Below are positions 5,986 through 49,595 of a stretch of DNA of 64,000 nt, in pieces. The first letter of the stretch is position 1. Every line of letters starts with the position of its first letter. Made by a program: the position numbers and the translations under genes. Under the pieces are notes generated by a model. That model was not told the origin of the DNA, did no database searches, and was given only the letters and a program-made list of their open reading frames with translations. Source of the stretch: a plasmid; sequence record NZ_CP103154.1; one strand, given 5' to 3'.

Positions 5986-6149
5986 ATATACAGAGTATGT
6001 GAGTGTAACGAACATTGGTCGGCAGCTCGGCTGTCGCAAGGTTTTTTGTACCCACAAAAACATACCTTGCATTAGCAAAGATATACAATAATACTCAGCT
6101 GTGAAACAAAACCAGACAAAAGTCTTGATTTCTTAATCCAGATTAACCG

Positions 6150-6300
6150 CTCACTTTGTTACAAAGTAACTACGCACATTGTAACAGGCGAACGGAAAGC
6201 CATTAGTTACAAAATACATAATTACTAATTATATTATTACAAAGTATGAACATACATACTTAATTATAAGATTAAGTATGTACATATTTATATTTATATT
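6150..6300. promoter_or_regulatory. candidate oriT / divergent promoter region between mobA and traA
   Basis: AT-rich intergenic region with inverted repeats GTTACaaaGTAAC (6158-6170) and CATACTTAAT-tataag-ATTAAGTATG (6255-6280), between divergent mob and tra operons. Confidence 0.4.
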
Positions 6301-6417
6301 TATATATGTAATTACTTATACAATTAAGTAAAAAAGTGTATAATAAATTAATTATAAAAGTATGCAATTATTTAATTTATTATTTATATATTTGCGCACA
6401 TACTTAAAAACGTACAT

Positions 6418-12088: not shown

Positions 12089-12100
12089 AAACGAAGAGCC

Positions 12101-27502: not shown

Positions 27503-27537
27503 TCCGAGCGTAACGATGTGTAGCGACAACGTTTTTT

Positions 27538-27592
27538 GGGGTTCTTTTTTGGGCGTCTTCCAAAAAGAACTCCCACACATTTAGATGTGTGG
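27538..27592. terminator. bidirectional terminator-like tandem hairpins between convergent genes
   Basis: GGGGTTCTTTTTTGG-gcgtctt-CCAAAAAGAACTCCC followed by CCCACACAT-ttag-ATGTGTGGG. Confidence 0.45.
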
Positions 27593-27600
27593 GCTATTCA

Positions 27601-28581
27601 TTACACTACCATCCTTTCCCTTATCAACGGTATATTATCCCGTACCAAATTCAGAATCCGGTCATGATAGGCTGATAATTGGTTAGACTTTCCACGACAC
27701 TGGCACACCTCCATCCTGCTAAGTGAAAACTCCACCGTTTCCATGCGCCTTCCATCCACCGTTGCCGACATTATCAACGAATCTTCTCTCTTATAATAGG
27801 CGTTGCTGAATACACAATGATGCAGCAACTTTCCCTCTTTGTAAAAGTCCGAAAGGCTTTCCAATACCCGAACCATAATATTTCCATCCGCAAACGAAAG
27901 ATTAAAGAAACGTGATTTGGCAGCAATATAGTCTTTTTCATCCTTTTCAGAATATTTTTTCTTACATTTCCCCATCACCCAATCATGCGCTTCTTCTACA
28001 TTCAACGGACACAAATAATGAGGATTTCTCGCATCCAATTTATTTTCTATCAGCATATCCACATAGTCCAGCCACAAGTCCGCATCATGTATCACATAGT
28101 CATGTCTTAAACAGATTTTTACATACGTCCAATACTTATCTATACCGTATTTTCTCTCTAAAAATCTCAAGAACAAATTCATTTGCCCTGCCTTATATAA
28201 TATCTCCATCCGATTATCAGTTAATAATGTCATAAAGAAGGAACTCGGACAAATATCATAAAAGGCACCCTTAAATCCATTCCTCGTAAGTTCGGGTATC
28301 ACTTTCATTCTCGGATAGATAACTGCCGGGCAAATATCATAAATACGGTCATGATGCACATTCCGCTTACGCAATTCCAAAGAACTTCCATATATCCATG
28401 CATCGTAATAAAATATAGACATGCCCCGCAGCAAAGACAGCGTTTCTGTCTTGCCCTCTTTATTCATCCAACACTGTACCGCCTCAATTATAAAGTAATT
28501 AGCCGGAGACCCTTTTTCAGCCGGCAGTCCACCATAAAAAAACGGATAACTTGATATTGCTTGTATGTAGTAATCACACAA
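27601..28581 (-). CDS. PcfJ-like protein, C-terminal portion (apparent frameshift with 28488..28847)
   Basis: 326-aa ORF with a PcfJ-like conserved core; overlaps an upstream same-strand ORF by 94 nt. Confidence 0.6.
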   Translation of the reverse strand: MCDYYIQAISSYPFFYGGLPAEKGSPANYFIIEAVQCWMNKEGKTETLSLLRGMSIFYYDAWIYGSSLELRKRNVHHDRIYDICPAVIYPRMKVIPELTRNGFKGAFYDICPSSFFMTLLTDNRMEILYKAGQMNLFLRFLERKYGIDKYWTYVKICLRHDYVIHDADLWLDYVDMLIENKLDARNPHYLCPLNVEEAHDWVMGKCKKKYSEKDEKDYIAAKSRFFNLSFADGNIMVRVLESLSDFYKEGKLLHHCVFSNAYYKREDSLIMSATVDGRRMETVEFSLSRMEVCQCRGKSNQLSAYHDRILNLVRDNIPLIRERMVV

Positions 28582-28847
28582 AAATATTCTTTATATACAG
28601 CCGTCCTTTTCCTGCTATTCTCCAATTTCAGGTTCATACCGCAATGAGGACATTTACAGTTTTTCTTATCTTCCTTATCCCGCCATGTATGCCCACAATC
28701 CAAACAAAAGCAATTCCCCTTTGCATCACGCTTGAAATAATGCACAAAGCAATGTTTATAGGCATAACGCTTTTGAGCCTCTGAAACGGGAGCTAACTTC
28801 CTGCTCCCATTCACGATTTCCATTTGTAATTTTGTCTTGGGTTTCAT
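28488..28847 (-). CDS. zinc-ribbon N-terminal portion of the PcfJ-like protein (likely the same gene, frameshifted)
   Basis: CFCLDCGH...CKCPHCG zinc ribbon; 119 aa; its 3' end overlaps the 5' end of 27601..28581. Confidence 0.5.
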   Translation of the reverse strand: MKPKTKLQMEIVNGSRKLAPVSEAQKRYAYKHCFVHYFKRDAKGNCFCLDCGHTWRDKEDKKNCKCPHCGMNLKLENSRKRTAVYKEYFCVITTYKQYQVIRFFMVDCRLKKGLRLITL

Positions 28848-28848
28848 A

Positions 28849-29259
28849 TCAAAAAAGAGTTAACTGGGTTTGTACTTCGGTGTTGTTCTCACGTTTAGCT
28901 TGTTGACGCTTCTTCAACTTTGCCAATTCTTCCTCCTGCAATTTTTTGATAGCAGCCTCACGAGCCGCTTTCTTTTCTTCCTCTGACAATTCAACATGAT
29001 GATTTACGACTACATTACATTTCAATGGGCTACCCACCTCAATATTATCTTCCTGATAATAGTGCAACGCCATACCAAAAATTTCATCATCACTAAAACC
29101 ACAGCAACCGCTTTTCTTCACTTGGTTTAAAATATAGGTAATGCAATTATCTATATTCTTTGTAGGTTTTTGATAGACTGGAGCAAACAGACTATCCACC
29201 GCTGCCATATTATCAAGGTATGCCTTGATGGTACTTTTAAATTGTTCTGACACTTTCAT
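28849..29259 (-). CDS. PcfK-like protein
   Basis: 136 aa (MKVSEQFKSTIKAYLDN...CITYILNQVKKSGCCGFSDDEIFGMALHYYQEDNIEVG), the usual partner upstream of PcfJ-like genes. Confidence 0.55.
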   Translation of the reverse strand: MKVSEQFKSTIKAYLDNMAAVDSLFAPVYQKPTKNIDNCITYILNQVKKSGCCGFSDDEIFGMALHYYQEDNIEVGSPLKCNVVVNHHVELSEEEKKAAREAAIKKLQEEELAKLKKRQQAKRENNTEVQTQLTLF

Positions 29260-29447
29260 AGTATATCATTTTTAGATTTCATTTCACAATAAGCCAATTT
29301 CACGAGAAACAAGGAGAATAGGCAAATAAGAGCCAACAACGTAACCGACACAACCTTTATCGGACTTGGCGTTATTACCGCTCCGACAAACATAGCCACT
29401 GCACAAAGAGCGATGATGACCGAAAAAACAAATTGAATGATTTGCAT
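29256..29447 (-). CDS. small membrane protein
   Basis: 63 aa, two TM helices; first gene after repeat module copy A. Confidence 0.4.
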   Translation of the reverse strand: MQIIQFVFSVIIALCAVAMFVGAVITPSPIKVVSVTLLALICLFSLFLVKLAYCEMKSKNDIL

Positions 29448-29467
29448 ATACTTCTGCTACTTAGTTT

Positions 29468-30153
29468 GTTAAACTTCTAATTTTATGCTTCAGCTAGATT
29501 TAAAGACCTTTTTTTAAAACCCCTTTCCGGGATGGCCTTTTCTTTCTGCCGACTTTTTTTTTGAGCTTTCATGCCCCATCTGAGTTTATGAGCCTTTTTT
29601 TTACGGCACACAACAATAAGGAAGGAGGGATTAAGAAAAGTTTTGGACGACAAAAAATGTTGGGGACAGCGAAGCCGTCCGGCGTTATTTTTTCGGGACA
29701 AAGGGGCGAAGACCGGAACTCTTTCGTATCCATCCACCGAAATAAATTTGCCGTTCAAAAACAAAGGATCTCAGATGGAGCTATGAAAAAAGCACATTAG
29801 GGGAGGCAGAAAACAAGGAAAAGGGCAGTACGGAAAGTAAAACAAACCATACGGTTTTGCTTGCAAAACCGTATTCCTATCTCCCTGCCACAAGTGACAG
29901 GGGGGGAACGGGTTAGCAACGGACTGCCGGGACAAACGGTAAAAGGAAGGAACTGCAATACGGAAGAAGGAGGTTGTTTCGGCAATGCCGAAGCTCCGGA
30001 TGATGACCATTGCAATCCCGCCCACGTTTGGAACTTCTCTTTTCTGGTTTGCCCATAATCAGCCGCATAGCGGATGACTACGGGCAAACCGGGAATGAGA
30101 ACAGTCATTCCGATGAAGGGGAGGGTGGGGAAGAATACTGCGTGAACGCAAAA
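29468..30153. repeat. ~685-bp conserved noncoding module, copy A; structured-RNA or regulatory candidate
   Basis: Near-identical to 38571-39252 and 41639-42320; internal ORFs are not frame-conserved between copies; many hairpins; its left end lies about 20 nt from the start codon of the 29447 operon. Confidence 0.8.
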
Positions 30154-30159
30154 ACACTC

Positions 30160-30200
30160 TCGGATATGTAGCAAAAAAAAGCGGCACTAGGCCGCTTCAA
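30160..30200 (-). terminator. rho-independent terminator of the ssb gene
   Basis: On the minus strand GCGGCCTAGTGCCGC followed by TTTTTTTT. Confidence 0.6.
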
Positions 30201-31400
30201 TCATTTGCTTGCTTTTTTCTTTTTAGAGACAGCCTTCTGTTTAGGCTGATCCGGTTTTTCTTCTTCTTTTTCCGGAGCCGGATAAAACTTGGTGGCTACC
30301 ATCACAATGCGGTTACGCTTCTCCCCACTTTTAGAATCCGTCCATTCTTCCGGCTTAAAGTAGCCTTCAACGGTTATCAGCTCACCTTTTTTCAATACAT
30401 CGAAGGAATCCAGTGCTTCATTCTTTCTCCAGGCTTCAATCCCCATGAAAGCGGAAACATAAGAGGTTTCTTCACCTGTCTTGTCTGCACGGCTGACCGC
30501 GATAGAAAAGCGTGCTACGCTTGCTGTTTCAAAACTACGGATTTCTGCATCCTTACCGATAAAACCTGTTACTGCGAATGAATTTTCAATCTTTTTCATA
30601 TCTCTGATTTTTTAGAAGTTAATTAATCAATTTTACAGTGCAATAACTGATTGTTGGCTTTGGGGGACACCATGAAAAAAGATATAAATACTCTTTTTAT
30701 GCTGGCCGGAAAAAGGAAGATTTGTAACTTTTTTATTGGTGAAGATGGCAGCAAATAATTCGGGTTAAATACGCTTTTTATGCAAGGCAAAAAAAGGAAG
30801 ATTTCAGACGAATAACAACGTGGTGTTTGTGAATCGTCCCCTTATCCCCGTAAAAGGGGTTAGCAACAATCTATATTTGCAACGGAAAATGATTTGACTT
30901 CCCTAAAAAATGATATGAAAAAGACAAAACTTGAAAATCAGCAACAGGTTTGGAAAGGATGCAAAAAACAACCGGTCAGACAGCAAGCATGGCACATTCC
31001 GAAAATATGGTCAGCCGCCTATCGACACACCGGAAGAAACCTCTGCAATTCCTTTTAAAAAAATGAAGCCGAAGAATGAAGCATACAATATTCCACGTAT
31101 CGAAAAAAGTGACTGCACGATAAAATGAAAGGCTGCAACGGAAGAACAGACTTGCGGATTCTGCGGGGAGAACATAACCATACAGGCATACAGCCACTAC
31201 AACTGTTTCCGGAAAAAGAAGATTATACAACCGGAAAAACAGAAAGGCATCCACTCGGAGAAAAGCAAGCAAACGATTGAAGCGGACTGCCGATTTAGCG
31301 GCGAAATATCCGACTACCTATATACAGCCCTAAAAGGCTGGGGCATATGGGTAAGCAACAGACTGCCGGGCAAATAAAAGGAGAGTGGCATAGCCGCCGG
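30181..31400. repeat. segmental duplication, copy 1: ssb plus its ~700-bp upstream leader; copy 2 at 33379-34590
   Basis: Long collinear identity between 30181-31400 and 33379-34590, including the terminator, the ssb gene body (decayed in copy 2) and the upstream noncoding region. Confidence 0.8.
30201..30599 (-). CDS. ssb: single-stranded DNA-binding protein-like (OB fold), plasmid/ICE type
   Basis: 132 aa; FAVTGFIGKDAEIRSFETASVARFSIAVSR...ITVEGYFKPEEWTDSKSGEKRNRIVMVATKF; Lys-rich tail. Confidence 0.7.
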   Translation of the reverse strand: MKKIENSFAVTGFIGKDAEIRSFETASVARFSIAVSRADKTGEETSYVSAFMGIEAWRKNEALDSFDVLKKGELITVEGYFKPEEWTDSKSGEKRNRIVMVATKFYPAPEKEEEKPDQPKQKAVSKKKKASK

Positions 31401-31563
31401 AAAGAGGTTGTCTCGATGTGGCCGAAGCTCCGAAAGCAGACCGGATATGCCTCTCTCCTTTGCCTTCCCCATTCCTGGATTTCACACAATCACGGAGCCT
31501 GCGAGTGACTATGAGAAATCCTGAAACGGGGACAGTCACTCCGCTGAAAGGGTGGGTGGGAAA
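31348..31563. ncRNA. variant of the structured 3' module of the repeat family (candidate structured RNA or ssDNA element)
   Basis: Shares the 5' motif GGGTAAGCAACAGACTGCCGGG and the 3' motif ...CAGTCACTCCGCTGAAAGGGTGGGTGGGAAA with the 685-bp module; compensatory base changes keep two hairpins. Confidence 0.45.
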
Positions 31564-31665
31564 CATGTGACTTTCTCCAAAATAACAAATAGGGGTATAA
31601 AGATCTCAAAAGAAAAGAAAGCCGTTCCAGAAAAGACTGGAGCAACTATCACCATCTACTGTTCT

Positions 31666-32943
31666 TTAAGTTAATTGCAGCAAATCCAAATCATCAGTGA
31701 CCAATCCATCCAATACATGTTGGATTTTATCAAATATAGCCTTATCTATGCCATACGTGGCGCATAACGATTGAAATTTGCTTACAGCATCGAACACCTG
31801 TAATATCTTCTTTTCGGGCTCCTCTACAAAATCCTCGGCAAAGTTGACGAAATCACTTGTAGTCAAGGCAGACCTTTTGCCCATCACGCCCATCGAATGA
31901 ATGTGTGCTGAAGAATTTTCCCATGTATTTGCCGTGAACATTACATCATATGCAGGTGATAAACGCCATACCCCTGCCTTATCCATGATAAACGATATGT
32001 TCTTATTATGATCATCGGATATACCTGCGACATAATTAAATACCATTCTGATAAATATCTGATCTTTGTCTTCCTGGGGAAGTTTCAGAGTCTCTGCTAT
32101 CCAACACAGCTTCATATAATCATCTGCACCCGGCATAATGGCCGCAAGGGTCTGACTAAAGAGCTTTTCTCCATTCTTACGATCAAATCTTTCCGTTACG
32201 AAATGATTTCTTCCATCAATTTCTTTCAGGAAGCATGGCATCATGTTGATTCCCGCCGCCTTTGCCATTTCGCTATATACCATTTCTATCTCTGTGGTAG
32301 GAGAGTCATCTGCTTCTTTAAATTTGATGATATACTGCTTAAAATTTTCAGGCAAATCCACCTGGCCGGAACGAAACTCTTCCGTTTCGAGATTATAGGC
32401 AATCACTGCCTTCGGGCGCATGCCACCGGCAGAAGTTCCAAGATATATCAACTTTTTCATCGTGAGGCTATCCTCCGGTGATATGACAGCAGCATCTCGA
32501 TCATTATATATTTTAGAAGCCAAAGTTGCCAATGATGACATATTTACTGACTCATGGATGGCATCATCATTAAATTCCGGTTCAAATTCCAATGCTCCCA
32601 TAGCCCTCTTGCCAATATAAGAGAGCTTCAATAGAGGCAATGATTCCGTAACCTTTATATTATTATCCGTGAGCCATTGGTCAAATAGGGAAGCCCCCCA
32701 TTTGTCAGGAAGCGCATCTGCAAGAAATTCCGGAAGCCCTTGATATAATTTATCTTTATTCCCATAGAAAGACGCAAACAAAGGGGTTCTCTTAGGGTGT
32801 GTGGAAGGGCATATATCATAATCTTGTTTCCTATATTCATCCGTAAATTGGAATACAGAACAATGCTTTTCAAAGTCCCAATTCAATTTGCCAATGCAAG
32901 TCCCCCACAGATATACATTCACTATAATCGGCTCTTTCTTCAT
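31666..32943 (-). CDS. hipA: HipA-family serine/threonine kinase toxin
   Basis: 425 aa; GTSAGGMRPK phosphate-binding loop and DDHNKNISF catalytic motif; start overlaps the HTH gene stop (ATGA). Confidence 0.8.
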   Translation of the reverse strand: MKKEPIIVNVYLWGTCIGKLNWDFEKHCSVFQFTDEYRKQDYDICPSTHPKRTPLFASFYGNKDKLYQGLPEFLADALPDKWGASLFDQWLTDNNIKVTESLPLLKLSYIGKRAMGALEFEPEFNDDAIHESVNMSSLATLASKIYNDRDAAVISPEDSLTMKKLIYLGTSAGGMRPKAVIAYNLETEEFRSGQVDLPENFKQYIIKFKEADDSPTTEIEMVYSEMAKAAGINMMPCFLKEIDGRNHFVTERFDRKNGEKLFSQTLAAIMPGADDYMKLCWIAETLKLPQEDKDQIFIRMVFNYVAGISDDHNKNISFIMDKAGVWRLSPAYDVMFTANTWENSSAHIHSMGVMGKRSALTTSDFVNFAEDFVEEPEKKILQVFDAVSKFQSLCATYGIDKAIFDKIQHVLDGLVTDDLDLLQLT

Positions 32944-33278
32944 ACCATCTTACGTTTACCGTTAATTCTTTGTATTCTTTTACCTGTTTTTTCATTGATT
33001 AGGAAAGGGGAGTCTGGAAGTTCCGGAACCAAACCGACAACGCCTTCAAGAGTTCCACTTATACGCAAAATCTTAAGCAATGTACTTAGGGCAATATCAC
33101 TTACTTTACAAGATTCTATTCTCTTAATAGTAACGATAGATACTCCTGCCTTATCCGCAAATTCTTGCTGGGAAAAACAGCAGCTAAGTCTTATAGACTT
33201 AACTCTCTTGCAGATTTCCTTTACAATACATTCATCTGAAAATTCGTATATTGTATATGTATCATATAATCTTTTCAT
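32940..33278 (-). CDS. hipB: XRE-family HTH protein, HipB-like antitoxin
   Basis: 112 aa; HTH segment LSCCFSQQEFADKAGVSIVTIKRIES; immediately upstream of and overlapping hipA. Confidence 0.7.
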   Translation of the reverse strand: MKRLYDTYTIYEFSDECIVKEICKRVKSIRLSCCFSQQEFADKAGVSIVTIKRIESCKVSDIALSTLLKILRISGTLEGVVGLVPELPDSPFLINEKTGKRIQRINGKRKMV

Positions 33279-33378
33279 AGAAAAACATATTTAGGTATCA
33301 TTTTTGATACAAAAATACCGATAAATCTGAAAATCACCAAATTAAGAAACACTTTTTTTATAATCTTCTGCCGCATTA

Positions 33379-34590
33379 GCAAACGATTGAAGCGACCTTG
33401 TGCCGCTTCAATCGTTTGATTGCTTTTTCTTTTTAGTCCGGGGGTTCTTATTTTTCCGGAGTCGGGTAGAACTTAGTAGCTACCATCACAATGCGGTTAC
33501 GTTTCTCCCCACTTTTAGAATCCGTCCATTCTTCCGGCTTAAAGTAGCCTTCAACGGTAATCAGTACATCTTTTTGCAGTATCCAAAAAGCATAGCGGTC
33601 TTCCATCTTACTCTAGGCTTCAACTTTCATAACAGAGGAAACAAATGTTTTTTCTTCATTTATCTTGCCTATGCGACTGACCACAATAGAGAAGTGTGCA
33701 ACCTTTACTATTTCGAATAAATGGATTTCTGCATCCCTACAAATCCTGCCTGTTACTGCGAATGAATTTTCAATCTTTTTCATATCTCTGATTTTTTAGA
33801 AGTTAATTAATCAATTTTACAGTGCAATAACTGATTGTTGGCTTTGGGGGACACCATGAAAAAGATATAAATACTCTTTTTATGCTGGCCGGAAAAAGGA
33901 AGATTTGTAACTTTTTTATTGGTGAAGATGGCAACGAATAATTCGGGTTAAATACGCTTTTTGTGCAAGGCAAAAAAGGAAGATTTCAGACGAATAACAA
34001 CGTGGTGTTTGTGAATCGTCCCCTTATCCCCGTAAAAGGGGTTAGCAACAATCTATATTTGCAACGGAAAATGATTTGACTTCCCTAAAAAATGATATGA
34101 AAAAGACAAAACTTGAAAATCAGTAACAGGTTTGGAAAGGATGCAAAAAACAACCGGTTAGACAGCAAGCATGGCACATCCCGAAAAGATGGTCAGCCGC
34201 CTATCGACACACCGGAAGAAACATCTGCAATTCCTTTTAAAAAAATGAAGCCGAAGAATGAAGCATATCATATTCCACGTATCGAAAAAAGTGACTGCAC
34301 GATAAAATGAAAAGCTGCAACGGAAGAACTGACTTGCGGATTCTGCGGGAGAACATAACCACACAGGCATACAGCCACTACACCTGTTTCCAATAAAAGA
34401 AGATTACACCACCGGAAAAGCAGAAAGGCTCCACTCGGAGAAAAGCAAGCAAACGATTGAAGCGGACTGCCGATTTGGCAGCGAAATATCCAACTACCTA
34501 TCTACAGCCCTAAAAGGCTAGGACATATGGGTAAGCAACAGACTGCCGGGCAGTCACTCCGCTGAAAGGGTGGGTGGGAAAAAACTAAGT
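33379..34590. repeat. segmental duplication, copy 2 (see 30181-31400)
   Basis: Collinear with copy 1; carries the ssb pseudogene and a deletion variant of the structured module at 34508-34580. Confidence 0.8.
33420..33790 (-). pseudogene. degenerate second copy of the ssb gene
   Basis: DNA homologous to 30201..30599 but with indels and stops; no intact ORF. Confidence 0.6.
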
Positions 34591-34654
34591 GGACGCAAAA
34601 AACAACCTTACCATTGGGGGATAAACTTCCCCCTATTTTCACTTCACATATTCT

Positions 34655-35137
34655 TTACCCCACTTCAATTGATTCAACAAACTTCAACAACAAAGCGACT
34701 GTTACCGTATGAAATGAAAGCTGATTGAACAACTTATGCGCTTTCAGCATCTCAATAGCGGCTTCAGCCGTAACAACTCTCTGTTCATAAAGCCGAATTG
34801 TCGCATATAACTGGTCATTTGCGACAGGCCCCATTATTAGGTCATAGTCACCGTTTTCTCTTCCTCTGCGGTTGTTGACAACAAACTCCAGCCATTCTTT
34901 TGTTGCACCCATAAACCGAAGAACCGGATATTCCCTATCAAGAATATCATCGGGAACTTCATAAACAGAGACGATTGCTTTTTCGCTCTGTTCCCTGTTC
35001 TTCTTCAACAAAGCCCATTTTTTTGCTTGTTCAAAGTTGGTTGTCGTATAAAATCCCTTCCCAAAGTCCGTAGCCTTCCGTCCTTTCTGTATATTAGGGC
35101 GTTTCACGGTAACTGTAGATCCATGAAATAGTCTCAT
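34655..35137 (-). CDS. DUF3990-like protein (second member of a DUF3791/DUF3990 pair)
   Basis: MRLFHGSTVTVKRPNI...DFGKGFYTT N-terminus typical of this family; overlaps the upstream ORF by 4 nt. Confidence 0.5.
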   Translation of the reverse strand: MRLFHGSTVTVKRPNIQKGRKATDFGKGFYTTTNFEQAKKWALLKKNREQSEKAIVSVYEVPDDILDREYPVLRFMGATKEWLEFVVNNRRGRENGDYDLIMGPVANDQLYATIRLYEQRVVTAEAAIEMLKAHKLFNQLSFHTVTVALLLKFVESIEVG

Positions 35138-35583
35138 TTTCTTTTATTGATATAAGTCGTTATAGTATCTAATATATATTCGGGGTCTTGGGTATGAAGC
35201 ATTTCAAAAGTCTCATCCAAAAAATCAAAAACCCCATAGTCCGAAAACAACAACAAGGTTTCTTCCGCACTTTGTTTCTTTTCCTCCCTATAATTCTCAA
35301 TGCAGAACATCTTGAAAAGCAGGATCTTCGTGTCACCGTTATACCGTCGTTTTTCTTCTGTTTTTTCCTTCTCCAATGTTTCATAAAGCGACAATGTACT
35401 TGAATACCATAACTTGGTACTCTTATCCAGCAAAGATTTATACAACTTGGAAGAATATATATAATACAGTGCATCGCCTAAAGGCAATGCCTTTTTCTTC
35501 ATGACCAGTTCTACCAGCTCTCTCATCACGAATGGGAGCATGGTTGAGTCAAGTTCTCCTTGATTTTTATGAGTAATTTCCAT
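35134..35583 (-). CDS. DUF3791-like protein (partner of the DUF3990-like gene)
   Basis: 149 aa, gene pair with overlapping stop/start. Confidence 0.45.
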   Translation of the reverse strand: MEITHKNQGELDSTMLPFVMRELVELVMKKKALPLGDALYYIYSSKLYKSLLDKSTKLWYSSTLSLYETLEKEKTEEKRRYNGDTKILLFKMFCIENYREEKKQSAEETLLLFSDYGVFDFLDETFEMLHTQDPEYILDTITTYINKRK

Positions 35584-35879
35584 ATTCTTGTTGTTATTAC
35601 TTTAGCATATTTTCGAAAACACCTTCTTCACAGTTCTTTATACACACCTGACACTCGGCCACCACTTCTCTTAATATTCGGGCACATTCTTCATTCGAAT
35701 GCCCTTGCAGTAATTCATAGGCATATCGCATCAGTTCATTAGCTTCCATTGTTTCCATCCTTATCAATAATATTCAAGTTCATCATTATTTTCTGCAACG
35801 ACTCCATATTTGGAGTTCCTAACCAACACACACCTATGCAAAAGGTCATATTGTTCTCTGTATCTGAAAAACGCATATT

Positions 35880-37230
35880 GTTTTACCTTTTACAAACATT
35901 GTTGTCCCATTAAAATCTAAAAGAGTTCTTTGAAATATTTGAAATTTAGTTAGTTACAGCGATTTTCCGAGCGAACGGACTTGAATTTGTAGCTTTGCAT
36001 CAGATTAATCCGATGGCATATGTTCCAAGACAAATACGTTTTCGCTCAATTGGCTTCATTTCTGAATCGAAGTAAGTTTAACCGCATAGTCACCAAGTAT
36101 GATGGTGATAAATATGTGAAGCACTTCACCTGCTGGAATCAACTACTTGCTTTGATGTTTGGTCAACTTTCTAATCGTGAAAGTCTGCGAGATTTGATAG
36201 TTGCTCTTGAAGCTCATCATTCCAAATGTTATCATTTAGGAATGGGTAAAAATGTATCAAAGTCATCGCTGGCAAGAGCAAATCAAGATAGAGACTATCA
36301 CATCTTTGAAGAATATGCTTACTACCTGGTTAGCGAAGCACGACAAAAGTGTGCTAATCATATTTTCAAACTTGGCGGTAACGTTTATGCTTTCGATTCG
36401 ACTACTATTGACCTGTGCCTTTCAGTCTTTTGGTGGGCAAAATTCCGCAAAAAGAAAGGTGGTATCAAAGTGCATACATTATATGATGTGGAAACACAGA
36501 TTCCTGCATTCTTTCATATCACGGAAGCATCCGTACACGATTCTAAAGTTATGATTGAAATTCCTTATGAACCAAGCTCTTATTACATCTTTGACCGCGG
36601 TTATAACAACTTCAAAATACTGTATAAAATTCATCAAATTGAAGCCTACTTTGTTGTCAGAGCAAAAAAGAATCTCGGGTACAAATCCATCCAATGGAAA
36701 CGTAGGCTGCCTAAGAATGTGCTTTCAGACGCAAGTGTATTTCTGACAGGATTCTATCCTAAACAATATTATCCAGAGCCACTTAGACTGGTTAAATATT
36801 GGGATGAAGAACAAGAACGAGAATTTACATTCATAACCAATGCGATGCATATATCTGCGCTTCAAGTTGCTGAACTTTATAAAAATCGCTGGCAGGTAGA
36901 GCTGTTTTTCAAATGGCTCAAGCAGCACCTTAAAATCAAAAGATTTTGGGGAACTACAGAGAATGCTGTTCGAATACAGATATATGCTGCTATATGCGCT
37001 TACTGTTTGGTGGCAATCATTCAACACGATATGCAACTGAACAGAAGTACATATGAAGTGTTACAAATACTGAGCATCTCATTGACTGATAAGACTCATC
37101 TGAGAGACCTCTTTGATAAAACTAAATTTCAAAATGACAAAGAACGATTCGGACCAAATGGGCCAAGTTTATTTAATTTTTAATTCGTCCCAATTTTAAT
37201 GGGACACTAATGTTTTACAAAGGTAAAACA
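35880..37230 (+). mobile_element. IS4-family insertion sequence (~1.35 kb)
   Basis: Imperfect ~37-bp terminal inverted repeats (left GTTTTACCTTTTACAAACATTGTTGTCCCATTAAAAT; right end is its reverse complement with three mismatches) bracket a DDE transposase gene. Confidence 0.8.
36020..37183 (+). CDS. IS4-family DDE transposase
   Basis: 387 aa; YAFDSTTIDLC and IFDRGY Asp motifs and NRWQVELFFKWLKQ Glu region typical of the IS4/DDE_Tnp_1 family. Confidence 0.85.
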   Translation: MFQDKYVFAQLASFLNRSKFNRIVTKYDGDKYVKHFTCWNQLLALMFGQLSNRESLRDLIVALEAHHSKCYHLGMGKNVSKSSLARANQDRDYHIFEEYAYYLVSEARQKCANHIFKLGGNVYAFDSTTIDLCLSVFWWAKFRKKKGGIKVHTLYDVETQIPAFFHITEASVHDSKVMIEIPYEPSSYYIFDRGYNNFKILYKIHQIEAYFVVRAKKNLGYKSIQWKRRLPKNVLSDASVFLTGFYPKQYYPEPLRLVKYWDEEQEREFTFITNAMHISALQVAELYKNRWQVELFFKWLKQHLKIKRFWGTTENAVRIQIYAAICAYCLVAIIQHDMQLNRSTYEVLQILSISLTDKTHLRDLFDKTKFQNDKERFGPNGPSLFNF

Positions 37231-37376
37231 ATTAAGTAAAATTCATCTATCATTGCTTTTCATATTTATTGTGTCTTTCTCTTTTGCATCGGAAGTATTA
37301 GCACTTACAGCAACCAGACAGTATGACATCGCCACGTTTGATCATACCGCTGGAAAACAACGATATACAATCTGAA

Positions 37377-38009
37377 TCAAAACAGATTGTATATCACCAA
37401 TTTCTTTTTTTGTGCCTTGTTAAACGTATAAGAAGTTCCTCCGGCAGATTTTCCATCCCAATAGGCAATCAGCCTACAGGCGTGTGAAATCATGTAATCA
37501 TTACGGTGGGCATAGCATTGGGCATAATAATATTCGGATAGAACTACCACCTTGTCGGCTTGGCGCAAAATATCAGCATACCTCTGTTTGTCCTCTTTGT
37601 TGAAATACACATCTTGCCCGACATAAGGAACAACCGCCACCAAAACCATATCGGGATATTGTTTCCTTTGTTCAAGTACGGTATGAGCAGCCATCATGTC
37701 AAATCCAACCGCACAACCAATATAGAAAAAACGGATTCCATTCTCATAGCAGAAACGTACCTCTTCATTCAACGATACGGACAAAGCATATTTATTTGTT
37801 CGTATCGTTCTATGACCGGTAAAAGCAACGGACATCATTTTCATCCATTTATCACGTGCCTTTCTACATATATCCAACGAACCTGCCGAAGTTTCATACA
37901 CCATTCCATTCACCTCATAACGATAAGTGAACCAAGTAGTATCTCCAAAGATATCCTTCTGCTTCTCTATATAACTCTCTTTTTCTTTCATCTTATAACA
38001 TACGGACAA
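37377..38009 (-). CDS. SLOG-superfamily protein (DprA/YpsA/DUF1273-like Rossmann domain)
   Basis: VAFTGHRT, IGCAVGFDMMAAHTVLE and HRNDYMISHACRLIAYWDGKSAGGTSYT motifs match the SLOG (Smf/DprA-LOG) pattern; 210 aa. Confidence 0.6.
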   Translation of the reverse strand: MSVCYKMKEKESYIEKQKDIFGDTTWFTYRYEVNGMVYETSAGSLDICRKARDKWMKMMSVAFTGHRTIRTNKYALSVSLNEEVRFCYENGIRFFYIGCAVGFDMMAAHTVLEQRKQYPDMVLVAVVPYVGQDVYFNKEDKQRYADILRQADKVVVLSEYYYAQCYAHRNDYMISHACRLIAYWDGKSAGGTSYTFNKAQKKKLVIYNLF

Positions 38010-38559
38010 CTGTTTTACCTAAAAAGAAACCTCCCAAAACCTCACCTCCTATTTTTTCCAACTGACATGCGAAACGAGCATACGAAAACCCTTTTGTTAA
38101 AATATCGTCAAATACCAAGATTTTCTTACCCCGAAAAAAGTCCTTGTCAAATTCTATCACTTGTACTTTTTGAAGCGACTTGCTGTCAAATTTCTCGTGA
38201 ATAGCCAAACGATCTCCACTGACACGTATATGTTCATACGCATTGATAGCACCTGAAAACTTACACACAGCCGAAGCAAACCCCTTATAACGAAGTTCAT
38301 TCTTATCAGCGGAAGAAGCCGGAACACAAGCAAAAACAATATTCTTAACATCATCACCAAAAACTTGATGTAACTTATTCGCTATCATCCAAGCTATATT
38401 CAAATAAGCTTTTCCATCCTTAAAACTCCATATCATCTTACGAATTTGCCATTCTCTTTCCGTTGCCTGCCGATATTGCATAGGAAGATACTCAAAGAAA
38501 GAAAACATCATCTTATGCCATTGTCTGTCTAAACTAGGATATTTACTCTGATGTGCCAT
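37993..38559 (-). CDS. phosphoribosyltransferase-fold protein (ComF-like PRTase)
   Basis: C-terminal PRPP-binding-like motif KKILVFDDILTKGFSYARFACQLEKIGGEV; 188 aa; overlaps the SLOG gene by 17 nt. Confidence 0.6.
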   Translation of the reverse strand: MAHQSKYPSLDRQWHKMMFSFFEYLPMQYRQATEREWQIRKMIWSFKDGKAYLNIAWMIANKLHQVFGDDVKNIVFACVPASSADKNELRYKGFASAVCKFSGAINAYEHIRVSGDRLAIHEKFDSKSLQKVQVIEFDKDFFRGKKILVFDDILTKGFSYARFACQLEKIGGEVLGGFFLGKTVVRML

Positions 38560-38570
38560 AGTCTTTTATC

Positions 38571-39252
38571 TATTAAAATTAAACTTATGCTTCAGCTAGA
38601 TTTAAAGACCTTTTTTTAAACCCCTTTCCGGGATGGCCTTTTCTTTCTGCCGACTTTTTTTTTGAGCTTTCATGCCCCATCTGAGTTTATGAGCCTTTTT
38701 TTTACGGCACGCATCAATAAGGAAGGAGGGATTAAGAAAAGTTTTGGACGACAAAAAATGTTGGGGACAGCGAAGCCGTCCGGCGTTATTTTTTTCGGGA
38801 CAAAGGGCGAAGACCGGAACTCTTTCGTATCCATCCACCGAAATAAATTTGCCGTTCAAAAACAAAGGATCTCAGATGGAGCTATGAAAAAAGCACATTA
38901 GGGGAGGCAGAAAACAAGGAAAAGGGCAGTACGGAAAGTAAAACAAGCCATACGGTTTTGCAAGCAAAACCATACTCCTATCTCCCTGCCACAAGTGACA
39001 GGGGGGAACGGGTTAGCAACGGACTGCCGGGACAAACGGTAAAAGGAAGGGACTGCAATACGGAAGAAGGAGGTTGTTTCGGCAATGCCGAAGCTCCGGA
39101 TGATGACCATTGCAATCCCGCCCACGTTTGGAACTTCTCTTTTCCGGTTTACCCATAATCAGCCGCATAGCGGATGATTACGGGTAAACCGGGAATGAGA
39201 ACAGTCATTCCGATGAAGGGGAGGGTGGGAAAGAATACTGCGTGAACGCAAA
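38571..39252. repeat. ~685-bp conserved noncoding module, copy B
   Basis: Near-identical to copies A and C; its left end abuts the start codon (38559) of the PRTase-SLOG operon. Confidence 0.8.
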
Positions 39253-39370
39253 TTAATGGGATTACCAGTAACTCCAAGCGTTTTTTGCTACTTTTTTGGG
39301 GTGCTTGCCAAAAAGTAGCGGACAGCAAAATACCCTCCCTTCCCTAATCCAAAAGAAGGGAGAATGTGCT

Positions 39371-39724
39371 TCATTGAAGGTATATAGGTTCCGTTCCCTG
39401 ATTATAACAATACATAGTGTTATTTCTGAAACCATCAAAGCATATATGAAAATCATCGAAATCCTGTTCCGTGGCCAAACGAACCTTATCACTCAACAAA
39501 ACCATGCATTGTTTATTGACAGATGTAGCCAAAGAGGTAGTACGTCCCGGCTTTATCTCCAATGCCACCACATAAGAAGTCCTTCGTGGATAGATATACC
39601 CAATAATTTCCTCATTGAGTACAACCAAACGAATAACATCTTCATTCAAAACGGGAATATTATTAATTTTGCCCATCATTGTTATAATATAAATCAGTTT
39701 ATAATCATTAAAATACAATATCAT
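39371..39724 (-). CDS. hypothetical protein
   Basis: 117-aa ORF in a minus-strand gene string. Confidence 0.4.
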   Translation of the reverse strand: MILYFNDYKLIYIITMMGKINNIPVLNEDVIRLVVLNEEIIGYIYPRRTSYVVALEIKPGRTTSLATSVNKQCMVLLSDKVRLATEQDFDDFHICFDGFRNNTMYCYNQGTEPIYLQ

Positions 39725-40047
39725 TACAAATGATACCTATAATTTTTATAGGTAAACTTTTCCACCGAGACCACCTCATAAAGATAGTCTTCATGGCAAG
39801 AAGCCATTATACAGTTCTCACATTCAAGAATAGGATTTATAACTACACGGAATTTAATAGTGCCGTCCACCAGAACAAACTCCACCCGATTAAAGAACCC
39901 TTGTAGAGAATGCCCTTCCTTATCCATCAGACGCACTACTTCACCTGTAAAAACAGCCAATTCCTTAGCCTGCCATTTCGCTTTACGCAAACAACTGTTC
40001 GCCGCTTTGACGTTCTCATTCACCTCTTTTGTTCTTATTGCTTTCAT
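39724..40047 (-). CDS. hypothetical protein
   Basis: 107-aa ORF, tightly packed with neighbours. Confidence 0.45.
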   Translation of the reverse strand: MKAIRTKEVNENVKAANSCLRKAKWQAKELAVFTGEVVRLMDKEGHSLQGFFNRVEFVLVDGTIKFRVVINPILECENCIMASCHEDYLYEVVSVEKFTYKNYRYHL

Positions 40048-40076
40048 ACCAAAATCCTTTTTACATATTTATCTTG

Positions 40077-40802
40077 TCAAAAATCAAAAGTCAGCTGCGT
40101 AGCCCTTGCGTTGCTCTGAATCGACCTCTTCAATTCAGAATTATCCTCCATTGCATTTTCAAGTTTCCTAATAAAAGAAGTGTCACCTGCTTCCGTTATC
40201 TTTAAAATAGGCAACCATACTCCGGCTATCAGCTGTAAATCTATATGATAACTTCTCCAATGCTGCATTGTCAATGTATTCATCCATGCGACTTCACCGG
40301 GTACGCTATTCATCATCAGATTGACAACGGTCATCTTTACACAAATCAAATCTATATCCGAGCCATAACAAAAAAGCCTTCCTCCATCATTCTCTTCCGC
40401 ACATTTTTTTACAGCGGAAAGTAGCATCCTGCCGGAACCACAGCACGAATCACAGACCGACTGTTTAGGTTTCAGCCTATTTCCCCCCATACATGCCATC
40501 AAATCAGCAACGTGTATCGGGGTAAAGAACTGTCCGTTATTCCCATGACTGACACACTCCATGAACATATCTCCCAAGACATCGCAAAATCCTTCCGAAT
40601 ATTCAGACACCCTATAAAACATTTGAACAAAAAGTTCCATTTCATATGGCTTATATCTTTTTTCCACTCTACGATAATCCTCCGCCAACATCCCGACAGA
40701 CAAATAGTAAAGACAAACATCCAAAAAATCCCGAAAGGCTTCTTCATATCCCCGACTGAAAGCAAGCTTTTCATAAAGTTTCATTATCTCCTTTGGTATC
40801 AT
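40077..40802 (-). CDS. N6-adenine DNA methyltransferase-like protein, short form lacking the catalytic NPPF/Y motif
   Basis: GQFFTPIHVADLMA (motif X), VCDSCCGSGRMLL (motif I, SAM binding) and CYGSDIDLICVKMTVVNL are present; no (N/D)PP(F/Y/W) motif IV; only 241 aa. Confidence 0.6.
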   Translation of the reverse strand: MIPKEIMKLYEKLAFSRGYEEAFRDFLDVCLYYLSVGMLAEDYRRVEKRYKPYEMELFVQMFYRVSEYSEGFCDVLGDMFMECVSHGNNGQFFTPIHVADLMACMGGNRLKPKQSVCDSCCGSGRMLLSAVKKCAEENDGGRLFCYGSDIDLICVKMTVVNLMMNSVPGEVAWMNTLTMQHWRSYHIDLQLIAGVWLPILKITEAGDTSFIRKLENAMEDNSELKRSIQSNARATQLTFDF

Positions 40803-40817
40803 ACTTTTCTGACTTCA

Positions 40818-41081
40818 TTATTCACAACATTCTATATTCCTTGTGCCATAGATTTTATCAAAAGCCGCTTTTATCTCCGAGCGATATTTACAGTCCTTCT
40901 CAAAACAAAGTTGTTTTGTCCAAAAATCGAAATCAAAACCATCGGTATTATCAATCGTTACAGAAACATAATCAGTCATACCACTCTGACATACAACCGT
41001 ATGCCGATTTACACAAAAGTGGTCATTTAAAGCAGTTTCTTTTCGGGTAATGCGTTCTACCATCTTATCTATCCACTTCAT
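40818..41081 (-). CDS. hypothetical protein
   Basis: 87-aa Cys-containing ORF. Confidence 0.4.
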   Translation of the reverse strand: MKWIDKMVERITRKETALNDHFCVNRHTVVCQSGMTDYVSVTIDNTDGFDFDFWTKQLCFEKDCKYRSEIKAAFDKIYGTRNIECCE

Positions 41082-41137
41082 ACTTATAATATTTTATGTA
41101 ATTGCCCCATTCCAAGAGGCAGTTACGGTTATACTCA

Positions 41138-41617
41138 TTAAAAATCGTTCTCGTTCAAAAACAGCACATCGCCTTTCATCACCATCCAATTAATCTCACT
41201 CAGATGATAGCCACAATGCCCACTCAAAAAAATCTCAATCTCTTCAGTGGTCTGCAATCTCCTGTCTGGGCTTATCACCGCAACATTACCGGAATTACAA
41301 TCCAATACAGCCAGTTTCTCATAAGCCCACTCACCAAACTGGCAGAACTCGATAAAATTGGTATAGGTTATCCGTATGCTATTGTTTGCATCAAATTCAA
41401 GGGGTGACTTTGTAATGAATGAACCTGCATGATTCACCACCACAGAGGGGCTAATCTCTGCCAATGAAGATAAGCTGTCATCCCATCTAATCTCATAAAG
41501 GAAAAATCCTTTTGGCAATGAATTGCGGTCTATACGATAACTGGAAAAAAGACCGTCTATCGTTTCATTAATAACTAACTGTTCATAATCTCCTTCTAAA
41601 TAGTGTACTCGTGACAT
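41138..41617 (-). CDS. hypothetical protein
   Basis: 159-aa ORF; first gene after repeat module copy C. Confidence 0.5.
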   Translation of the reverse strand: MSRVHYLEGDYEQLVINETIDGLFSSYRIDRNSLPKGFFLYEIRWDDSLSSLAEISPSVVVNHAGSFITKSPLEFDANNSIRITYTNFIEFCQFGEWAYEKLAVLDCNSGNVAVISPDRRLQTTEEIEIFLSGHCGYHLSEINWMVMKGDVLFLNENDF

Positions 41618-41638
41618 AACTCGTTGTTTTTTGGGATT

Positions 41639-42320
41639 GTTAAACTTCTAATTTTATGCTTCAGCTAGATTTAAAGACCTTTTTTTAAAACCCCTTTCCG
41701 GGATGGCCTTTTCTTTCTGCCGACTTTTTTTTTGAGCTTTCATGCCCCATCTGAGTTTATGAGCCTTTTTTTACGGCACACAACAATAAGGAAGGAGGGA
41801 TTAAGAAAAGTTTTGGACGACAAAAAATGTTGGGGACAGCGAAGCCGTCCGGCGTTATTTTTTTCGGGACAAAGGGCGAAGACCGGAACTCTTTCGTATC
41901 CATCCACCGAAATAAATTTGCCGTTCAAAAACAAAGGGTCTCAGATGGGGCTATGAAAAACGCACATTAAGGGAGGCAGAAAACTAGGAAAAGGGCAGTA
42001 CGGAAAGTAAAACAAGCCATACGGTTTTGCCTGCAAAACCGTATTCCTATCTCCCTGCCACAAGTGGCAGGGGGAACGGGTTAGCAACGGACTGCCGGGA
42101 CAAACGGTAAAAGGACGGGGCTGCAATACGGAAGAAGGAGGTTGTTTCGGCAATGCCGAAGCTCCGGATGATGACCATTGCAATCCCGCCCACGTTTGGA
42201 ACTTCTCTTTTCCGGTTTGCCCATAATCAGCCGCATAGCGGATGACTACGGGTAAACCGGAAATGAGAACAGTCATTCCGATGAAGGGGAGGGTGGGAAA
42301 GAATACTGCGTGAACGCAAA
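41639..42320. repeat. ~685-bp conserved noncoding module, copy C
   Basis: Near-identical to copies A and B; flanked by a minus-strand operon on the left and a plus-strand operon on the right; a TAnnTTTG-like -7 box (TACTTTTG) lies just beyond its right end. Confidence 0.8.
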
Positions 42321-42423
42321 AACACAGTATGTCATCTTAAAACAATATCTTTAAAAAGTTTTTCAGAAGAAATGCTTACCAATATCCTAATAATTATTAC
42401 TTTTGATAACATAATACAACGAT

Positions 42424-47566: not shown

Positions 47567-47965
47567 TTAATACAATAACTCCATGCACTCCTGTACCGCT
47601 TTTTCCAATGCTTCTTCCAAACAACAAAAAGCGTCCGCATTACTTTCGGAGTCATACAACACATAATCTCCAGCCCTCACAACCACATGCCAGACCGCCA
47701 CGTTTTGTTCTGTTTGAAACGTATATTCACGAGTCTGTATCATCCATTGGATACATGCTGCCAGTGTCGGGCACTCGCACATATACATCGGGGTATTCCT
47801 TCCCTCAATATCGGTGCGTAGCCTATCCTGTTTGTCATACCAATACTCACAAGGCACGTAATAGTATAATTCCTTCATCATAAGAGCTGTGTCGCTATTA
47901 ACCAATCTCTCTTTGTTGATTTGTGTAATCAAATTTTCCATATTAGCATTATTTAAGTTGAACAT
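47567..47965 (-). CDS. hypothetical Cys-containing protein
   Basis: 132-aa ORF; its start abuts the partial repeat module at 47986. Confidence 0.45.
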   Translation of the reverse strand: MFNLNNANMENLITQINKERLVNSDTALMMKELYYYVPCEYWYDKQDRLRTDIEGRNTPMYMCECPTLAACIQWMIQTREYTFQTEQNVAVWHVVVRAGDYVLYDSESNADAFCCLEEALEKAVQECMELLY

Positions 47966-47985
47966 CTGATTTATTCTTCAGCTAG

Positions 47986-48085
47986 ATTCAAGACCTTTTC
48001 ATTTTTTGTATCGGGAAGGTCTTTGGTCAGCCGACCTTTTTTTGATGTCATTCCCCATCTGAGTTCTGAGCCTTTTTTCGGCATA
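47986..48085. repeat. diverged copy of the first ~100 nt of the 685-bp module, copy D
   Basis: CTTCAGCTAGATTCAAGACC...GCCGACCTTTTTTTGATGTCATTCCCCATCTGAGTTCTGAGCCTTTTTTCGGCA aligns with the module's left end. Confidence 0.6.
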
Positions 48086-48312
48086 TCAAGGTCTGGATTG
48101 CAAGCAATAAGCCAAGTTTCACTTATGGAAAATGTCGGGAAGACACTTCTTCATCGTTATTTTCCATACAGTAAAGGCGCATGGCCGTAACTTGCCATTT
48201 GCGGAATCCCGAAACCTTTGCCGAGCAAAAAGCCGGACTCGGATCGGAGGAAAGAAGCCGGGGGAGGCAGCCCACAGAAAGGGCAATCCGATACAATCAA
48301 GAAATTAACCTG

Positions 48313-48899: not shown

Positions 48900-49595
48900 T
48901 TACCTATTTTGCAATCTTCCCTCGTCCGCATAGCTATAATAGTTATTGCCTGCCACAATCACATGGTCAACCAAACGGATGTCTAATGTTTCAGCGGCTT
49001 TTTTAACTGCTTCCGTCAAGCGGTCATCCGCACTGCTGGGCTTGCGTGCTCCTGATGGGTGGTTATGTACCATGATAAAAGATACGGCGTTATAATACAA
49101 TGCCTGCTTCATGATAACCCGTATATCCACAGGGGCGGTATTTATCCCGCCGCATGAGATACGGACTTTACGGATGAGTTTGGACGAACTGTTCAGCAAC
49201 AGCACCCACATCTCTTCAGTAGCTATATCGCACAAAACAGGATGCATCATTTTATAAACATTATTGCTGGATAAAAGCGCAGGACTTTCAACTTGCCCTT
49301 CTTTCAGCCGTTTATATAGCTCAATCGCCGCATAAGCGACTTTTTTACGGCTGGGTGTTAGTGTTTCCAGTACATCAGACAAGCACAATCCTTCTATTTC
49401 CATCTGTTCATACTTATATTCTTCACGTTTCAGTTTCTCACTGTTCGTCAAGGTATAAATCAACTCGCTGTTTTCCATCACCCGATAAACGTCATTCACT
49501 TCAAATACGGTTCTCTTCGTTTTCATACTGCCAAAAATTAAAAGATTAATACTCGCAAACATCGCTTGTCGCCCCAACCATAAATTTTTCCTCAA
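48900..49595 (-). CDS. radC: RadC-like JAB/MPN-domain protein
   Basis: HNHPSGARKPSSAD JAMM motif; 231 aa. Confidence 0.8.
   Translation of the reverse strand: MRKNLWLGRQAMFASINLLIFGSMKTKRTVFEVNDVYRVMENSELIYTLTNSEKLKREEYKYEQMEIEGLCLSDVLETLTPSRKKVAYAAIELYKRLKEGQVESPALLSSNNVYKMMHPVLCDIATEEMWVLLLNSSSKLIRKVRISCGGINTAPVDIRVIMKQALYYNAVSFIMVHNHPSGARKPSSADDRLTEAVKKAAETLDIRLVDHVIVAGNNYYSYADEGRLQNR

Follow-up and report, generated by a model that had tools for sequence, protein, structure and literature searches.

Why does one and the same non-coding unit of about 685 bp stand again and again directly in front of unrelated gene cassettes on a conjugative plasmid? The question is raised by a 64-kb window (the whole stretch of DNA analyzed here, 64,000 nucleotides of record NZ_CP103154.1), which belongs to pMMCAT, a conjugative Bacteroidales plasmid of ~98 kb with hosts in many Bacteroides, Parabacteroides and Phocaeicola species. 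The tra operon ends there with genes for an ArdC-like protein, SSB, a coupling protein and a Toprim protein, and after it comes an array of minus-strand cassettes, several of which have such a unit at their head. We assume, with a probability of roughly 60%, that the gene-proximal part of the unit is a hairpin promoter active on single-stranded DNA (ssDNA), analogous to Frpo of the F plasmid and written in the promoter grammar of Bacteroides, with one such promoter for each establishment or anti-defence cassette and with a structured domain joined to it.

The initial annotation described three near-identical copies, and these are indeed present on the plus strand as module A (29468..30157), module B (38571..39257) and module C (41639..42325), with 97.5% identity between A and B over 671 nt and 97.1% between A and C over 691 nt. 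Changes in the length of T, A and G runs, to which the differences had mainly been attributed, do exist, and about 20 substitutions per copy have to be added to them. The left ends adjoin start codons of minus-strand genes, as had been noted; by our measurement they lie 11-21 nt from positions 29447, 38559 and 41617. The presence of the listed local hairpins and of a G-rich tail was confirmed as well, and a consensus plus-strand -7 box (TACTTTTG at 42398) follows copy C ahead of plus-strand genes. As copies A, B and C are nearly identical to each other, compared with about 75% identity to orthologous copies elsewhere, we assume a recent duplication or gene conversion.

Beyond these three type 1 copies, the family has further members. 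A second type is represented by module X1 (30600..31603, plus strand) upstream of ssb and by its duplicate X2 (33784..34601, plus strand) upstream of a pseudo-ssb at 33445-33744, and a diverged type 1 hairpin without a distal domain, hairpin D, is found at 47966..48308 on the plus strand upstream of the gene 47567-47965 (nhmmer E = 3.5e-38, together with the alignment). X1 and X2 have only the distal part in common with A-C (69% identity over about 226 nt), and the hairpins of types 1 and 2 cannot be aligned to one another, yet the layout is common to both: each unit consists of a gene-proximal long hairpin and a gene-distal structured domain with a palindromic hairpin between them. The repeat as such is therefore real, but its description as a single 685-bp module does not hold, since it is a composite of a hairpin promoter candidate, a terminator-like palindrome and a separate structured domain. 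Between the type 2 hairpin and the distal domain, X1 contains ~400 nt of additional conserved non-coding sequence (30930-31325), and this middle part carries an inverted copy of the flank of the ssb terminator (31208-31288 versus 30189-30276, 73%).

We agree with the initial annotation that the module is non-coding. The internal open reading frames (ORFs) differ between the copies, homologues on other plasmids contain frame-breaking indels, and neither a conserved frame nor a family match was found, the latter in a Pfam search with three module ORFs. RefSeq nevertheless lists short "hypothetical proteins" within the modules on NZ_CP072215.1, at 29797-30108, 38958-39158 and 42050-42280 of the window as well as in X1 (for example WP_165852472.1, WP_008782408.1 and WP_008782421.1). 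Their frame is not kept between the copies, and these proteins are probably spurious.

The gene-proximal part of the units folds as ssDNA into one long imperfect hairpin of 300-390 nt. In module A the proposed promoter hairpin extends over 29523..29837 on the plus strand, as indicated by the DNA fold and by covariation, and the fold of this copy has a z-score of -6.5 compared to shuffled sequences; the corresponding hairpins are located at 38610-38947 in B, up to 42015 in C, at 30607-30911 in X1, at 33791-34093 in X2 and, according to the DNA fold, at 47997-48304 (plus strand) in D. A scan of the window with sliding 400-nt ssDNA windows, corrected for GC content, yielded the strongest structure signals at the modules (z from -3 to -4.7), followed by the area of the presumed origin of transfer (oriT). 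Hairpin homologues with 71-78% identity occur in CP103159.1, NZ_CP103198.1 and metagenomes, and a comparison of these lineages revealed an outer stem of wholly different sequence in which the complementarity is kept. For seven type 1 hairpins RNAalifold predicted 92 pairs, and compensatory double changes occur in 19 of these. The conserved complementarity of the outer stem and the compensatory changes point to selection on a single-stranded nucleic acid that contains both arms.

The second line of evidence is a promoter element within this hairpin. Every module has a single Bacteroides -7 box (TAnnTTTG), at 29743, 30872, 34054, 38844 and 41913, which is read on the plus strand and thus against the direction of the adjoining genes. 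In module A the box is TAAATTTG (29743..29750, plus strand) in the gene-distal arm, and a -33-like tetramer TTTC (29722-29725, plus strand) is located 17 nt upstream of it; the boxes of B and C occupy 38844-38851 and 41913-41920, and those of type 2 are TATATTTG at 30872-30879 in X1 and an equivalent at 34054-34061 in X2. Including the relatives from other plasmids and metagenomes, a [T/A]AnnTTTGC box is present at the matching position of the 3' arm in all 38 distinct hairpins (23 of type 1 and 15 of type 2), with AA, CC, TA or AC as the two variable nucleotides and with A and TTTG invariant, whereas TAnnTTTG in the orientation of the genes was found in none of the 38. Type 1 hairpins have TTTC 17-18 nt upstream of the box, a distance which we take to match the -33/-7 spacing of Bacteroides promoters. 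Many of the predicted folds place TAnnT in an internal loop, with TTGC base-paired. Hairpin and box are kept across the lineages, whereas the plus-strand sequence downstream of the box is conserved much less. In the folded plus strand, a box in the 3' arm points towards the base of the hairpin with the 5' arm and the DNA to the left as template, so the product would be an mRNA of the minus-strand genes. A conserved block, TTAT(G/T)CTTCAGC(T/G)AG(A/C)TT, lies between the hairpin and the start codon (29468-29520 and equivalents) in all type 1 units including the most diverged one and may be a leader or translation signal.

Transcription from the preceding cassettes is probably restrained in front of the units. 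Terminator-like hairpins on the gene strand separate each promoter hairpin from the cassette before it, namely the terminator of that cassette (for example 30178-30198) and a palindromic hairpin with a T-rich tail at 29849..29874 in module A (minus strand, with copies at 38950-38975 and 42019-42044), so read-through into the cassettes should be limited. The cassettes with modules have no consensus TAnnTTTG box on the gene strand; the module-free HipA/HTH gene pair has an ordinary promoter box at 33317.

The direction of transfer decides which strand is available for folding. The probable main oriT is, judged by gene layout, the AT-rich and repeat-rich gap at 6079..6361, across which the mobC-relaxase pair (5677-6078 and 4280-5680, minus strand) faces parA and the tra genes (plus strand). 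A search for inverted repeats and known nic consensus motifs gave no nick position. Beyond oriT, the relaxase operon points in the same direction as the cassettes, which corresponds to the situation in F, and this layout suggests by analogy that the plus strand is the transferred one. The area between mobC and parA is very AT-rich at 6230-6390 and contains tandem repeats similar to TATTTATA as well as numerous inverted repeats that overlap, and the folding scan also marks 5800-6050 as structure-prone.

Taken together, we propose the following model, in which each unit would serve as the control region of one establishment or anti-defence cassette in pMMCAT and its relatives. The plus strand would enter the recipient as ssDNA and fold into the imperfect hairpin of 300-390 nt, whose 3' (gene-distal) arm would provide the non-template strand of a sigma-ABfr-type promoter with the -33 element TTTC, a spacer of 17-18 nt and the -7 element TAnnTTTG. 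RNA polymerase would then read along the 5' arm, leave the hairpin at its base and enter the minus-strand genes; for copy A this predicts a transcription start near 29596-29600 and a leader of about 150 nt. As soon as the complementary strand is synthesized, the hairpin would be lost, no consensus promoter would point toward the genes and the terminators would stop read-through. The loss of the hairpin, the missing gene-facing promoter and the terminators would thus restrict expression to a brief burst after entry. We infer that the hairpin forms in vivo and is used by the polymerase.

The initial annotation considered a unit reused as the head of successive cargo cassettes as unfamiliar, which is overstated, as IncF and IncI1 plasmids are known to carry homologous ssDNA promoters dispersed in front of their leading-region genes. 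Upstream of their ssb, psiB, ardA and methylase operons, F and IncI1 plasmids contain several hairpin ssDNA promoters that are homologous to each other and active only until the complementary strand is made (PMC12672017; PMC11541004). Nearest to the units described here stand Frpo/ssi of F and ColIb-P9 as well as the ssDNA promoters of classes 1-3 of pESBL (Masai and Arai, 1997, cited after PMC12672017; PMC11541004). Our own check of the F plasmid showed that its leading genes point toward oriT, on the strand of traM onward, and that a hairpin of ~330 nt is located on the template strand upstream of ssb. A strict search for a sigma-70 box in Frpo of F found none, so this check covers the geometry of hairpin and genes only and not the placement of the box.

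The units of pMMCAT resemble Frpo in their long imperfect template-strand hairpin immediately upstream of ssb and anti-defence genes, in promoter elements that lie in the stem with the consensus strand on the gene-distal arm, in the dispersed homologous copies within one region with all genes on one strand, and in a cargo of SSB, methylase and anti-restriction or anti-CRISPR-type genes. They differ from it in the use of the Bacteroides -33/-7 elements (TTTG-like / TAnnTTTG) instead of -35/-10 and in the host phylum, Bacteroidota, in the position of the cassettes past the tra operon, and in the additional conserved structured domain of 270 nt and terminator-like hairpin. As a blastn comparison of four intergenic stretches of the F leading region with the window produced only chance matches, the unit is Frpo-like in architecture and not a relative in sequence. 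A description of ssDNA promoters of this type in Bacteroidota was not found in the literature; the papers searched describe such elements only in Proteobacteria and Firmicutes, and two surveys of leading regions do not mention Bacteroidota. The pMMCAT paper mentions neither oriT nor ssb nor these repeats.

The same arrangement is found on other plasmids. CP103159.1 and NZ_CP103198.1 match in layout, with tra genes, a Toprim gene and minus-strand cassettes with non-coding spacers of 600-1000 bp, and these spacers start with the hairpin homologues described above. Type 2 is always located upstream of ssb, and type 1 upstream of PRTase/SLOG, DUF2958 or PcfK genes. A pattern scan of 185,579 species genomes with the core of the distal domain retrieved only 11 stretches, which indicates that the family is narrow with respect to this motif; those with a BLAST match to the module are pMMCAT-like fragments, and two have no such match and are apparently chance matches. 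A search of metagenomes for the tail motif of the distal domain yielded 119 stretches, about a dozen of which are true relatives and were used in our comparisons, and the rest are mostly chance matches from soil and marine samples.

A third, unrelated long hairpin (z from -5 to -8.5) precedes the PcfK operon of CTnDOT-like elements in B. fragilis, B. finegoldii and Prevotella nigrescens, and it carries TACCTTTG in the distal arm on the template strand, as in types 1 and 2. ORFs are annotated beyond this hairpin, and their frames are broken between close relatives. We considered the possibility that the box is simply the promoter of a divergent gene and rejected it on account of these broken frames in two close relatives.

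Several points weigh against an ssDNA promoter. The first T of the box is replaced by A in three diverged members, that is hairpin D (AACCTTTG at 48213-48220, plus strand) and two metagenomic relatives, type 2 hairpins were found without a -33 element, and the gene strand carries a near-consensus sequence, TATCTTTT, 85 nt ahead of ssb. One conserved stem shows two uncompensated changes in NZ_CP103198.1. A comparison of G.T and A.C mismatches in the hairpin arms and the distal helices gave nothing beyond base composition (60 observed versus 55.5 expected, and 37 versus 27), so this asymmetry does not reveal which strand folds. The cassettes begin about 21 kb from the probable oriT and behind the tra operon and are therefore not strictly "leading", and the model fails if the minus strand is the transferred one. 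Furthermore, in duplex DNA the box should also fire rightward into the distal domain, possibly producing a plus-strand RNA.

The distal domain has features of its own. In module A it comprises 29885..30157 on the plus strand and contains GGGTTAGCAAC..GACTGCCGGG ahead of its core, and in B, C and X1 it comprises 38986-39257, 42055-42325 and 31325-31603. An outer helix encloses an invariant core, AGGTTGT[small hairpin]GCTCCG, which is followed by a long hairpin (30035-30101 in A) and by a tail in which a G-tract is followed 6-10 nt further on by CTGCGTG(A/T)ACGCA (30118-30151 in A, plus strand, with CTGCGTGAACGCA). Of the helix pairs, 7 of 72 are compensatory in the pMMCAT group, and a comparison across lineages gives 15 of 43. 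The domain is far less conserved between lineages than hairpin and box, and it is internally deleted in X2, where a remnant at 34505-34601 shows a clean junction from GGGCA to GTCACTCC at about 34552. In related plasmids (11900-12580 of stretch L013 and 8880-9830 of L014) the distal region is built from two or three units of about 210-275 nt in tandem, all of which end in the tail ACCTT..GGGTGGTGGGAG..CTGCGTGTACGCAAG. This tail is the best-conserved distal motif across lineages and always lies on one strand. A G-quadruplex was rejected as a general reading of the tail, because the pMMCAT copies reach four G-runs only by means of a long loop and GGGGTGGTGGG of the related plasmids cannot do so.

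Our conjecture is that the distal domain plays its role on the entering ssDNA, where it would either form a barrier to complementary-strand synthesis or provide a start site for it. In ssp2 of F the promoter stem itself blocks complementary-strand synthesis (bioRxiv 10.64898/2026.01.09.698686). Both ssp2 and the pMMCAT unit are stable structures of the incoming strand upstream of leading-region genes, whereas here a separate domain would form the block. By analogy, such a roadblock could explain why a hairpin-rich domain that ends in a G-tract lies on the side where the polymerase would arrive.

How well do other explanations account for these data? The box is a good Bacteroides promoter aimed at the distal domain, and an ordinary double-stranded promoter that makes a structured plus-strand non-coding RNA (ncRNA) of about 400 nt from this domain, for instance an antisense or regulatory RNA, would agree with the compensatory changes of the distal helices, with their invariant unpaired motifs on one strand only and with the broken frames downstream of the box in pMMCAT and in the CTnDOT-like elements. 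We regard this as unlikely, because the covarying partner of the box arm lies upstream of the box and hence outside such an RNA, which leaves the best-supported structure unexplained, and because the domain is much less conserved than hairpin and box and is missing in D. A plus-strand terminator for the putative RNA was not found, G.U pairs are not enriched over A.C as is usual for RNAs, and cmscan of the window with Rfam 15 gave no match at gathering scores and only weak chance matches in 29300-31700 at E up to 5. The STAXI motif of Rfam, which occurs near ssb, topoisomerase, anti-restriction and integrase genes and for which an action as ssDNA has been suggested, is absent from these matches; it shares with the unit that it is structured, non-coding and close to ssb and anti-restriction genes, but the architecture differs. 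The cassette mRNAs could also start with a long 5' leader in which the hairpin forms as RNA, with a role in processing, stability, antitermination or translation control and with the box as an incidental feature. The minus strand folds into the hairpin equally well, and the hairpin stands immediately upstream of the start codons, separated from them by the conserved block. Such a leader is quite unlikely, though, given that no consensus minus-strand promoter was found upstream of the hairpin, that terminator-like hairpins lie just before it and that the minus strand shows no excess of G.U; it would also leave unexplained why A and TTTG are invariant with variable nucleotides between them, and why three unrelated hairpin families have the box in the same arm and on the same strand.

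A different view is that the unit is solely an element of ssDNA replication, that is a single-strand origin, a priming site or a barrier to the complementary strand, in which the hairpin yields primers and not mRNAs. The ssoA and ssoU origins of rolling-circle plasmids are oriented, structured non-coding DNAs of 150-300 nt that work only as ssDNA and are read by RNA polymerase; they make short primers instead of mRNAs and occur once per plasmid. Among the conserved sso motifs, we found in the unit only a 5/6 resemblance to CS-6 in one loop, and this is absent in type 2. Several units are present per region, related plasmids have up to three tandem tail motifs, the Toprim gene adjoins the cassettes, Frpo has been reported to act in both transcription and priming, and ssp2 of F stalls complementary-strand synthesis (PMC12672017; bioRxiv 10.64898/2026.01.09.698686). 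A role in replication would be compatible with a promoter and does not exclude it, but as the only function it appears improbable, since every hairpin belongs to a particular set of genes, with type 2 always at ssb, and since a position 11-21 nt from the start codon with a conserved leader fits gene expression. It is highly improbable that the unit is a mobile or recombination element, such as a miniature inverted-repeat transposable element (MITE), a remnant of an insertion sequence (IS) or an integron-like cassette site. Three near-identical copies with unrelated cassettes between them, the variable cassette order in related plasmids and nearby serine recombinase genes would suit this idea, as would a GTTAAAC heptamer at the left end of A and C, which presumably fits the integron core-site pattern and is not found at that position in B. 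However, the inverted repeats are internal, terminal inverted repeats and target duplications were not found, the copies occur only in syntenic positions upstream of genes and in a single orientation, and the scan of the species genomes retrieved module-matching stretches only as pMMCAT-like fragments. The attC sites of integrons are recombination sites of 57-141 nt that fold as ssDNA, are located at the 3' end of the cassette and need the IntI integrase. The unit is in contrast 685 nt long, about five times the length of attC, stands at the 5' end of the cassette and contains a promoter box, and the nearby annotations include only serine recombinases and transposases but no integron integrase. 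As the order of the cassettes varies between plasmids, the units may double as recombination substrates, which would be a by-product. Thus, among the three readings that the initial annotation had offered, the early-expression ssDNA promoter is favored for the gene-proximal half with its covarying, box-containing hairpin, a recombination site or MITE is unsupported, and the distal domain may still be a structured RNA.

The ssDNA promoter and the rightward activity of the box might even be combined. In such a module the direction of transcription would depend on strandedness, as the box would fire leftward into the cassette in ssDNA and rightward into a functional distal domain in double-stranded DNA. 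The domain would then act either as RNA or, at an earlier stage, as a barrier or priming site on ssDNA that determines the time for which the promoter remains single-stranded. We consider this extension doubtful, although it would, if true, represent an undescribed two-state device common to pMMCAT-like plasmids and, in another sequence form, to CTnDOT-like elements across Bacteroidales.

If the ssDNA promoter is real, the Frpo principle reaches a phylum with a different promoter grammar. Few DNA elements of the human gut are exchanged as widely as pMMCAT and CTnDOT-like elements, and early expression bears on how they pass the defences of a recipient within minutes after entry. The proteins of the cassettes, like PcfK/AcrIIA9-like proteins, PcfJ, SLOG/PRTase, LPD28, DUF2958 and others, would become candidates for early-acting establishment and anti-defence functions, and a long hairpin with an inverted -7 box would provide a sequence rule to find such islands in Bacteroidota. 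It would also offer a self-silencing expression part for the engineering of Bacteroides. The conserved distal domain merits a separate study as a structured element in its own right.

The cargo of the array is of the leading-region type, with SSB, PcfK, PcfJ, an N6 methylase, SLOG/PRTase and RadC all encoded on one strand. Behind tra, the order is small ORF/PcfK/PcfJ, ssb, HTH/HipA, DUF3791/DUF3990, PRTase/SLOG and LPD28 to N6-methylase, and RadC and small genes come later. The first cassette (27601..29447, minus strand), downstream of module A, encodes a 63-aa ORF, PcfK and PcfJ, and one record labels the PcfK homologue as AcrIIA9 family. The second one consists of ssb (30201..30599, minus strand) and has its own intrinsic terminator at 30178-30198. 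Module B lies upstream of the cassette for a phosphoribosyltransferase (PRTase) and a SLOG (YpsA) protein (37377..38559, minus strand), and module C upstream of the genes for an LPD28 protein, a small ORF, an N6 DNA methylase and two hypothetical proteins (39371..41617, minus strand, terminator 39332-39365). The gene downstream of hairpin D (47567..47965, minus strand) encodes 132 aa, and a RadC/JAB gene is located upstream at 48900-49595.

The ssb cassette is present a second time at 33390-34601, where a degraded ssb is combined with module X2; the frame of this pseudo-ssb is broken, and it has 78% identity to 30261-30560. Between the PRTase/SLOG and the DUF3791/DUF3990 cassettes an IS4-family transposase gene (36020-37183) is inserted, which probably replaced or cut off the upstream control region of the DUF3791/DUF3990 cassette. 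A second pair of MobC and relaxase genes (53349-54679 and 56650-58963) has a "radical SAM mobile pair" and a gene for an MBL hydrolase as neighbors and resembles an inserted small mobilizable element, which makes a second oriT likely. The scan also revealed structure-prone ssDNA at 9350-9500 (z about -2.5) at the end of a gene for a hypothetical protein of 376 aa. Finally, the tra operon and the cassette array converge at 27537-27593, where two neighboring palindromes, GGGGTTCTTTTT/AAAAAGAACTCC and CCCACACAT/ATGTGTGGG, are probably bidirectional terminators.

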